This document shows, one piece after another, positions 61,587 to 62,082 of a DNA stretch of 64,000 nucleotides; position 1 is the stretch's first letter; every line of letters starts with the position of its first letter. A model generated the notes under the pieces. That model had not been told where the DNA came from and did no database searches. It was given only the letters and a program-made list of their open reading frames with translations. The position numbers were made by a program, and so were the translations under genes. Source of the stretch: Escherichia phage phiWec188; the sequence record LC739537.1; one strand, 5' to 3'.

Positions 61587-62082
61587 CCTACATCTTTACT
61601 ATACTACATTTTACTATCAGTTGTCAATAGTTTTATTGGGTGGGACAGTGACGAGTATCCCATTGGGTGACTAACCCTACGTTCGGTTGTGATTAATCTC
61701 CTGGGTGTCGCTTGCAACACTGGAAAACTCTCACGTCGATGGGAGAATCCGCTTCTTCTTTACCCCATCCAACCCTACTCCGGTCAAGTTTCAGGTGACT
61801 CTTTTTGTGATCAACACAATACTAAGAACACTGTCTTTCGAGCAGACCTTGTGCACAGGATACGACGATCAATCACAGTGCTCTTAATGTTGTGTTGTGA
61901 ATATTAACCTCGGAACTCATTACCGCGCTTCGGCTCGACCTTATTACAGGTTAGTGAATGTCTTTCTTCCGCTTACATTCAATAAATTTGCTTTCTTCAC
62001 AACGATAAGAACACTTAACAGAAGATAGGTCTGATTGCCTCGGATGATTTCTCAGTAGCCTAAATGTTCTTACCTGTTATGT

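Follow-up and report, generated by a model that had tools for sequence, protein, structure and literature searches.

What lies in the gap between tRNA-Gly and tRNA-Thr in the tRNA cluster of Escherichia phage phiWec188? We analyzed a 64,000-nucleotide stretch of this phage (sequence record LC739537.1; hereafter, the window), which is 100% identical to Escherichia phage phiWec190 (LC739539.1; Stephanstirmvirinae, Phapecoctavirus). ARAGORN places 11 tRNA genes at 60836-63288. All of them lie on the minus strand. The transcript of interest is thus the reverse complement of the strand shown, and we describe the features of the interval on this minus (tRNA-sense) strand. An initial annotation had described a tRNA-free gap of ~500 bp, apparently non-coding, that might hide a small non-coding RNA (ncRNA), an intron or the remnant of a homing endonuclease gene. 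According to ARAGORN and Rfam the gap is real and measures 496 bp (61587-62082); the tRNA coordinates also bear out the shorter gaps listed with it (61147-61346, 62159-62510, and 62902-63136). We find that the gap is an organised non-coding piece of the tRNA operon, and that its most interesting part is an RNA core, an orphan that T4 and many other virulent enterobacterial phages share.

A 55-nt core recurs in at least five phage lineages

The core is predicted to form a three-way junction and is preceded directly by a short hairpin, P0 (Table 1). We built a covariance model of the core, R1, from 21 diverse copies. True copies score 45-72 bits under this model, while chance matches selected by pattern reach at most 31 bits. 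The R1 search returned no second copy in the window and none in the Phapecoctavirus genomes that lack cassette B, the insertion that carries the core (see below).

The core is near-invariant in Straboviridae, Vequintavirinae, Schitoviridae, and 46-kb phages, where it usually lies by tRNA clusters. It spans at least five phage lineages and more than 1000 genomes: the exact core pattern retrieved 36 IMG/VR loci, a second pattern gave further loci, and 1021 GenBank phage records match a T4-type version of the element, 139 nt long. The core is restricted to phages and is absent from the bacterial genomes searched apart from chance partial matches. A pattern search of 185,579 bacterial and archaeal species genomes (596 Gb) gave 30 partial matches, versus ~69 expected by chance, and all 30 lacked the 3' half of the core. 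We found no description of the core in Rfam 15 or in the searchable literature on the T4 element, phage transfer-messenger RNA (tmRNA)-like RNAs, and RNA motifs of tRNA clusters, a coverage that is incomplete, so that an earlier description is possible. The sole intermediate R1 score in the bacterial collection (30.9 bits, borderline) came from a contig of a Segetibacter metagenome-assembled genome (L066, 4050-4109), where 13 nt separate the 5' half of the core from a GGUAAUG. This match may reflect chance, or the contig may derive from a phage and carry a divergent copy.

How is the core constrained? The innermost pair of its closing helix, P1, clearly covaries: it is paired in 21/21 copies and takes four forms (AU, UA, UG, and CG). 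The next two pairs form in 18 and 15 of the 21 copies, respectively. Between phiWec190 and SF1-1, differences within the core are confined to two hairpin loops. A hairpin of differing sequence occupies the P0 position in the T4-like, rV5-like, and Pylas copies. The core is constrained mainly in its sequence, which points to recognition by a specific partner.

The orientation of the core is always that of the neighboring genes or tRNAs. Among others, rV5-like phages, Pylas, and the 46-kb contigs have the core on the same strand as a tRNA cluster and within a few hundred nucleotides of it. The T4 copy fills the denV-vs.8 intergenic region (HM137666, 64800-64878) and overlaps the annotated start of vs.8. 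Every T4-like locus examined has the core 5' of a vs.8 homologue, even at 37% protein identity; RNAalifold detected no convincing long-range structure in the full T4-like leaders. In FV3 and at locus L022, the core occupies a short non-coding interval between two strong sigma-70 promoters, and at L049 an intrinsic terminator (11-bp stem plus U-tract) begins 16 nt past it. The core thus has its own promoter or terminator in some phages and therefore resembles a stand-alone small RNA there.

Two explanations for the T4 locus and its counterparts were rejected. A protein partner encoded beside the core is contradicted by the distribution of Vs.8 homologues, which occur only in T4-like phages, and by downstream genes that differ elsewhere. 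A T4 replication origin does not fit either, since oriC and oriE map near rI.-1 and repEA (PMC3016281), not in the denV-vs.8 region.

Two side observations concern T4-like phages. The annotated vs.8 start of T4 falls in hairpin P0 of the element (T4 64.8-64.9 kb); in related phages the start is annotated after the element, at an ATG with a purine-rich stretch before it. The T4 start is probably placed too far upstream, and its N-terminal extension is probably an annotation artefact. A T4-like IMG/VR contig (L052, 9017-9183) contains two tandem cores ~60 nt apart upstream of its vs.8 homologue, the second of which has diverged (45 bits).

Module hairpins H1 and H3 stay paired through two-sided changes

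Two long hairpins of the gap, H1 and H3, belong to a module family with conserved feet (5'-ACAACAGGUAAG... and ...CUUUCCGUUGU-3'), variable tops, and stems of 18-19 bp. Members of this family adjoin tRNA clusters in Klebsiella phage Pylas (Schitoviridae), Klebsiella phage T765 (Ackermannviridae), N4-like E. coli phages, and 46-47-kb IMG/VR contigs. We scored covariation in ten copies of the module stem from seven phages. Standard pairs make up 96% of the stem cells, and two-sided changes were found in 7/18 pairs (GC/UA 5:5 and GC/AU 5:4, for example). The covariation score was reached by 0/500 shuffles, and sliding the partner by 1-3 columns lowered pairing to 38-65%. A U:G pair is present in 9/10 copies. 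Both hairpins fold more stably on the sense strand than on the other strand, with fold z-scores of -3.1 versus -0.7 for H1 and -6.0 versus -2.6 for H3. The U:G pair and the stronger sense-strand z-scores thus indicate selection on RNA of the tRNA-sense strand.

Two partners are possible for the 3' foot of H1, namely the 5' foot of the same hairpin and the CACAAC located after the core, and the two folds are mutually exclusive. The alternative pairing reads GUUGUGAA/UUCACAAC in the window versus GUUGUGAC/GUCACAAC in three other phages, a difference of one compensatory change. Measured against the ~20-bp stem or more expected of an RNase III site, H1 (18 bp and one bulge) and H3 (similar) are at the lower size limit.

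Cassette B is an exchangeable insertion at the 3' end of tRNA-Thr

We compared the gap by BLAST with 50,697 phage records. The initial annotation had left open whether the gap is conserved among relatives or an indel, and the answer is both: 310 bp are kept genus-wide, and 187 bp form a clean indel. In most Phapecoctavirus relatives the Gly-Thr spacer measures 309-317 bp, versus 496 bp in the window, which is longer because of the 187-nt insertion. This insertion, cassette B, contains module hairpin H1, hairpin P0, and the core. It is flanked by a 10-bp direct repeat with the consensus CAACAYAACA, because of which its ends can slide by up to ~10 nt. The same motif is the 3' trailer of the tRNA.

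Cassette B is absent from phAPEC8, which carries tRNA-Thr allele 1, and from ABPW7, which carries allele 2; it is present in SF1-1 (allele 1) and in phiWec190 (allele 2), as well as in PsgM04F and DE16. The tRNA-Thr allele and the neighboring cassette thus assort independently, which places recombination breakpoints at the tRNA 3' end. The two alleles that circulate in Phapecoctavirus are non-homologous tRNA-Thr(UGU) genes (comparison of 62083-62158 in the window with loci L003, L063, and L064).

A promoter scan found no promoter-like site on either strand of cassette B. The cassette, core included, also has no match in 5426 complete E. coli genomes, and host mimicry was rejected on this ground. 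Pylas and the 46-kb contigs have the order module, core, module, and the same arrangement is recreated in the window by cassette B plus H3. Cassette B may have been acquired by recombination at the repeated module foot CAACAYAACA, its source being ncRNA arrays like those that adjoin tRNA clusters in Klebsiella and E. coli phages.

The remainder of the gap is conserved in the genus and includes a predicted promoter

The rest of the gap, part A (61587-61897), is 83-97% identical in Phapecoctavirus genomes by BLAST, and we read its conservation from an alignment of 10 genomes. H3, which directly follows the CCA end of tRNA-Thr in genomes without cassette B, is more conserved than the remaining spacer, and so are the 49 nt that adjoin it. 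No strong fold is predicted for this 49-nt segment.

The predicted sigma-70-type promoter at the other end of part A keeps both hexamers in 10/10 aligned genomes, and the 5' end of tRNA-Gly lies 11 nt past its -10 hexamer. The scan also found comparable promoters upstream of tRNA-Ser (62939-62910) and of the whole cluster (63528-63500). In its conservation, its placement before a gene, and its spacing, which is within the 16-18 nt expected between the hexamers, the site at 61598-61627 looks like a sigma-70 promoter. Part of the seemingly empty space would therefore simply be promoter.

Table 1. Features of the tRNA-Gly to tRNA-Thr interval and its borders (window coordinates)
Feature	Position	Strand	Basis and remarks
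tRNA-Gly	61513-61586	-	ARAGORN and Rfam agree
Predicted sigma-70-type promoter, TTGACA-18-TATAGT	61627-61598	-	Scan; 11/12 consensus positions
Conserved stretch bearing small hairpins GGGUUAGUCACCC and GGGAUACUCGUCACUGUCCC; an A/T-rich tract directly precedes the promoter	61628-61686	-	Alignment
Variable segment	61687-61737	-	Alignment; three alternative, unrelated versions within the genus
72-aa open reading frame	61689-61907	+	GTG start
60-aa open reading frame	61705-61887	+	GTG start
Hairpin GAUGGGG...CUCCCAUC	61738-61769	-	Compensatory change in phiWec179 and L056: GAUGGAAG...CUUUCCAUC
49-nt almost invariant segment, AUCACAAAAAGAGUCACCUGAAACUUGACCGGAGUAGGGUUGGAUGGGG	61763-61811	-	10-genome alignment
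Module hairpin H3	61812-61897	-	Genus-conserved; two variable positions across 10 genomes
Direct repeat, right copy, CAACACAACA	61888-61897	-	Doubles as 5' foot of hairpin H3
Cassette B, 187-nt insertion	61898-62084	-	Four-way comparison; in some Phapecoctavirus genomes only
55-nt conserved core, predicted three-way junction	61908-61962	-	Covariance model R1, 67.7 bits
Near-invariant stretch of the core, ACCUGUAAUAAGGUCGAGCC-N7-GGUAA	61920-61951	-	Sequence comparison
Hairpin P0, GAAUGU-13 nt-ACAUUC, directly 5' of the core	61956-61980	-	By eye and minimum free energy fold
Module hairpin H1, 18-bp stem with one bulged A, feet AUAACAGGUAAG... / ...CUUAUCGUUGU	61998-62080	-	18/18 pairs form
Direct repeat, left copy, CAACAUAACA	62075-62084	-	Overlaps last two bases of the tRNA-Thr CCA end
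tRNA-Thr	62083-62158	-	ARAGORN and Rfam agree

The interval encodes no protein and matches no described RNA family

The interval contains four open reading frames (ORFs) of 38-72 aa, none of which has a Pfam or PHROG match at E ≤ 0.1. The two named in the initial annotation (72 and 60 aa) exist and lie on the plus strand, antisense to the tRNAs; a further ORF of 43 aa is also on the plus strand. Among ten Phapecoctavirus genomes, the region under the ORFs has 1-nt and 2-nt indels and a replaced segment. phAPEC8 lacks both the 72-aa and the 60-aa ORF, and the ORFs of phiWec179 end differently. With ORFs that are not conserved in relatives and match no family, the initial reading of the interval as non-coding was correct: it is non-protein-coding. 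Could these ORFs nevertheless be small genes, as in the near-identical PsgM04F record, where two of them are listed as hypothetical proteins? The presence of the 72-, 60-, and 43-aa ORFs on the plus strand would allow it, but we consider it very improbable: they run antisense to the operon from GTG starts, have no relatives in the protein families, and are broken or remodelled by the indels in phAPEC8 and phiWec179, and the variable positions of the core do not coincide with third codon positions. The small coding sequences of PsgM04F are best treated as an over-call because the ORFs lack both family matches and conservation in relatives. Spurious small ORF calls are thereby flagged in several GenBank records.

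A covariance search with Rfam, also proposed in the initial annotation, was run at permissive thresholds on the gap, the whole window, and ten related loci. It returned only tRNAs, plus partial tmRNA matches in Pylas alone; within 61587-62082 it found no tRNA and no other family even at E ≤ 10. We rejected a tRNA or tRNA pseudogene (RF00005) inside the interval on this ground and because ARAGORN made no call there. The proposed intron (considered here as group I or II) or homing endonuclease remnant was not borne out, there being no Rfam intron match and no protein-family match among the four ORFs. The idea of a hidden small ncRNA fared better, in that two long hairpins of the gap covary and its RNA core is widely conserved, but none of them matches a described family.

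A tmRNA in the gap was likewise rejected. Neither the gap nor the window contains a tag ORF that starts with GCA and has a hydrophobic C-terminus, and the tRNA-like domain (T arm, acceptor G3:U70, and 3' CCA) is missing; the best local alignments of the gap to E. coli ssrA fall inside the shuffle distribution. The likeness to tmRNA (ssrA, including permuted two-piece forms) is found only in related arrays, which have the tag ORF and resume codon that the gap of the window lacks. These ncRNA arrays lie, unannotated, beside the tRNA clusters of Pylas (L006, NC_049444, ~870-1790, minus strand), T765 (L007), and 46-47-kb IMG/VR contigs (L013, L018, L027, and L033). tmRNA-type tags with a GCA resume codon are present in Pylas (ANDDVVLMAA), L013 (ANEEVYLAVA), L027 (ANEEMYLAVA), and T765 (ANDNTFLAVA). 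The Pylas array gives partial Rfam matches to tmRNA_permuted (33.7 bits; gathering score 47) and beta_tmRNA. The arrays of Pylas, T765, and the 46-kb contigs have no recognisable alanine-type tRNA-like domain, and ARAGORN reports no tmRNA in them by default; with relaxed thresholds, it recovered the tag peptides amid many false calls.

The gap resembles known systems in single aspects only

We wondered which known systems the gap resembles. T4 species 1 and 2 RNAs (rnaC and rnaD) are small stable RNAs of unknown function in the T4 tRNA gene cluster (PMC9697503). They are the closest analogues in kind, being non-coding RNAs within a phage tRNA operon that are co-transcribed with tRNAs. Homology was rejected: blastn-short found only 8-mers (E = 3.7) and R1 had no match in the T4 tRNA region (L055). 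T4 carries the core elsewhere, at denV-vs.8. In vitro, RNase III cleaves species 1 RNA, a parallel to the role that we propose for the module stems. The RNase III stems of T7 early RNA and of rRNA operons are long, near-perfect stems of about two turns, bulged, between the units of polycistronic RNAs. The module stems are like them in length, bulge, and placement between RNA units; however, 18-19 bp is at the low end, and the conserved feet ACAACA/UGUUGU have no counterpart in known sites.

GOLLD and ROOL are orphan RNAs of 500-800 nt from phages and prophages, mainly of Firmicutes and other hosts, and often lie by tRNA genes. The elements described here are similarly orphan, structured, phage-borne, and inclined to adjoin tRNA clusters, but the GOLLD and ROOL families of Rfam have no match here, and the core is 55 nt long and constrained at the level of sequence. 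The PeSL cassettes of T4-type phages are short repeated non-coding units with an early promoter and are sites of modular genome shuffling, whereas cassette B has no predicted promoter and is spread well beyond T4-type phages. tmRNA, GOLLD/ROOL, PeSL, and HK022 put RNA were rejected as the identity of the gap; like the RNase III sites of T7 and rRNA operons, each has a single aspect in common with it.

Other spacers of the cluster and related records

Several observations concern the rest of the cluster. A degenerate tRNA-like sequence lies between tRNA-Met and tRNA-Ile (60915-60991, minus strand). The T arm and acceptor stem are good and the D arm is poor, and there may be an anticodon loop with CUA; the sequence scores 21.3 bits with the Rfam tRNA model, below the gathering score of 29, and received no ARAGORN call. 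The spacers at 63289-63499, 62595-62719, 61423-61512, and 62902-63136 (all minus strand) fold into closed domains, each with a long stem that joins its two ends. For the 211-nt leader from the first promoter to tRNA-Met, the fold z-score is -4.6 on the sense strand versus -2.5 on the other strand. Closed-domain folding may be a general spacer architecture of the tRNA operon.

At 62159-62510, phAPEC8 and most relatives have a tRNA-Asn, in some with a tRNA-Tyr directly adjoining. In phiWec190 and the window the same place is a 352-bp tRNA-free spacer with an annotated 42-aa ORF (BDU13709.1). The fold z-score of this spacer is -3.2 on the plus strand and weaker, -0.4, on the tRNA-sense strand. 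PsgM04F (OR584014.1), deposited as a Pseudomonas coronafaciens phage, is 97.9% identical to phiWec190 over 2.8 kb of this part of the genome, and ABPW7 and B15 are labelled as Acinetobacter and Campylobacter phages, respectively. The host labels of these Phapecoctavirus records deserve caution.

Discussion

Together, our observations suggest that the gap is a transcribed, non-coding, modular spacer of the tRNA operon, in which module stems process or insulate and the core is a structured RNA bound by a shared partner. We hold this reading at a probability of about 0.5, and its descriptive part is much more certain than its mechanism. The spacer would be transcribed along with the tRNAs from the promoter at 62939-62910, and the promoter at 61627-61598 would restart transcription 11 nt before tRNA-Gly. 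The 18-19-bp module stems would be processing or insulating structures, either RNase III-type targets or 3'-end-protecting hairpins, that separate the tRNAs from adjoining RNA units. The core would be a small structured RNA domain, and a factor of the host or the phage, common to these systems, would recognize its near-invariant sequence; this factor would probably be a host protein or RNA involved in translation or RNA processing. It would work as a stand-alone small RNA in some phages and in the leader of vs.8 in T4-like phages.

Several points weigh against this reading. Transcription and processing of the spacer are steps that we infer, RNase III cleavage from the length of the stems alone. 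The two internal stems of the core never vary and thus provide no covariation evidence for their pairing. The closing helix P1 is weak and shifts register beyond its innermost pair, and in the closest relative, PsgM04F, it has only 2 bp. With z = -1.1, the segment formed by P0 and the core shows no unusual stability. Genes downstream of the core vary from one phage family to another and give no functional clue. Finally, cassette B is dispensable, as it is missing from most Phapecoctavirus genomes.

This dispensability would also suit genomic debris, that is, decayed pieces of tRNA and tmRNA arrays brought in by recombination and functionless beyond the promoter. The region is a mosaic in which one segment is swapped among three versions, no known family matches, and the cassette is similar to pieces of larger arrays that elsewhere carry tmRNA-like tag ORFs, pieces of which phiWec190 has only a subset. 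Yet debris is hard to reconcile with a core that is near-invariant over so many lineages and genomes, with variation limited to loops even among close relatives, with module stems that stay paired via compensatory changes, and with H3 and the next 49 nt being more conserved than other parts of the spacer; we think it unlikely. A similarly low probability attaches to a selfish or recombination element at the DNA level, in which the inverted repeats and CAACAYAACA would be mobility sites like those of miniature inverted-repeat transposable elements and the RNA folds incidental. Such an element would explain the precise insertion between copies of the 10-bp direct repeat, the occurrence of the same modules in unrelated phage families, and the independent assortment of cassette and tRNA-Thr allele. 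It would not explain why orientation always follows local transcription or why G:U pairs and fold stability favor the sense strand; no transposase or endonuclease is associated, and a terminal-repeat model leaves the conserved interior of the core unexplained. Mobility of the DNA is compatible with a transcribed modular spacer, as the way in which the cassette spreads.

The core could instead be a cis-acting regulatory RNA, whether riboswitch-like, protein-binding, or a put-like antitermination element, that controls its own transcription unit. Its constant position directly 5' of vs.8 homologues in T4-like loci, however diverged the protein, fits this idea, as do the similar numbers of phage records with vs.8 homologues (1010) and with the RNA element (1021), the promoter-proximal location in rV5-like phages, and the two adjacent small hairpins in the core. 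However, the genes that follow are unrelated between families (a P-loop protein, a 113-aa basic protein, an HNH endonuclease, or tRNAs). Furthermore, a new promoter after the element in FV3, L022, and phiWec190 removes it from the leader of the next gene, a terminator directly follows it in L049, and we identified no expression platform. We therefore regard cis regulation, too, as improbable.

The spacers of phage tRNA clusters are usually annotated as empty. Here, such spacers contain predicted promoters abutting tRNAs, long hairpins that covary, and an exchangeable cassette. The core is common, almost base for base, to phage families otherwise without DNA similarity, including the model phage T4, where it lies unannotated under a vs.8 start that is probably mis-extended. 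Conservation across such dissimilar families argues for a shared constraint, most simply a common host partner. If this is true, T4 genetics would make the question directly testable, and a new RNA family would join the short list of translation-linked phage ncRNAs. A bolder and more doubtful proposal is that the core represents a widespread new class of small RNAs of virulent enterobacterial phages, T4 among them, that moves with tRNA clusters and tmRNA-like tag RNAs in exchangeable ncRNA arrays and binds a conserved host component of translation or RNA processing. The arrays would then be a toolkit of translation-related RNAs shuffled between unrelated families at the module feet. If this is true, T4 genetics would make the question directly testable, and a new RNA family would join the short list of translation-linked phage ncRNAs.

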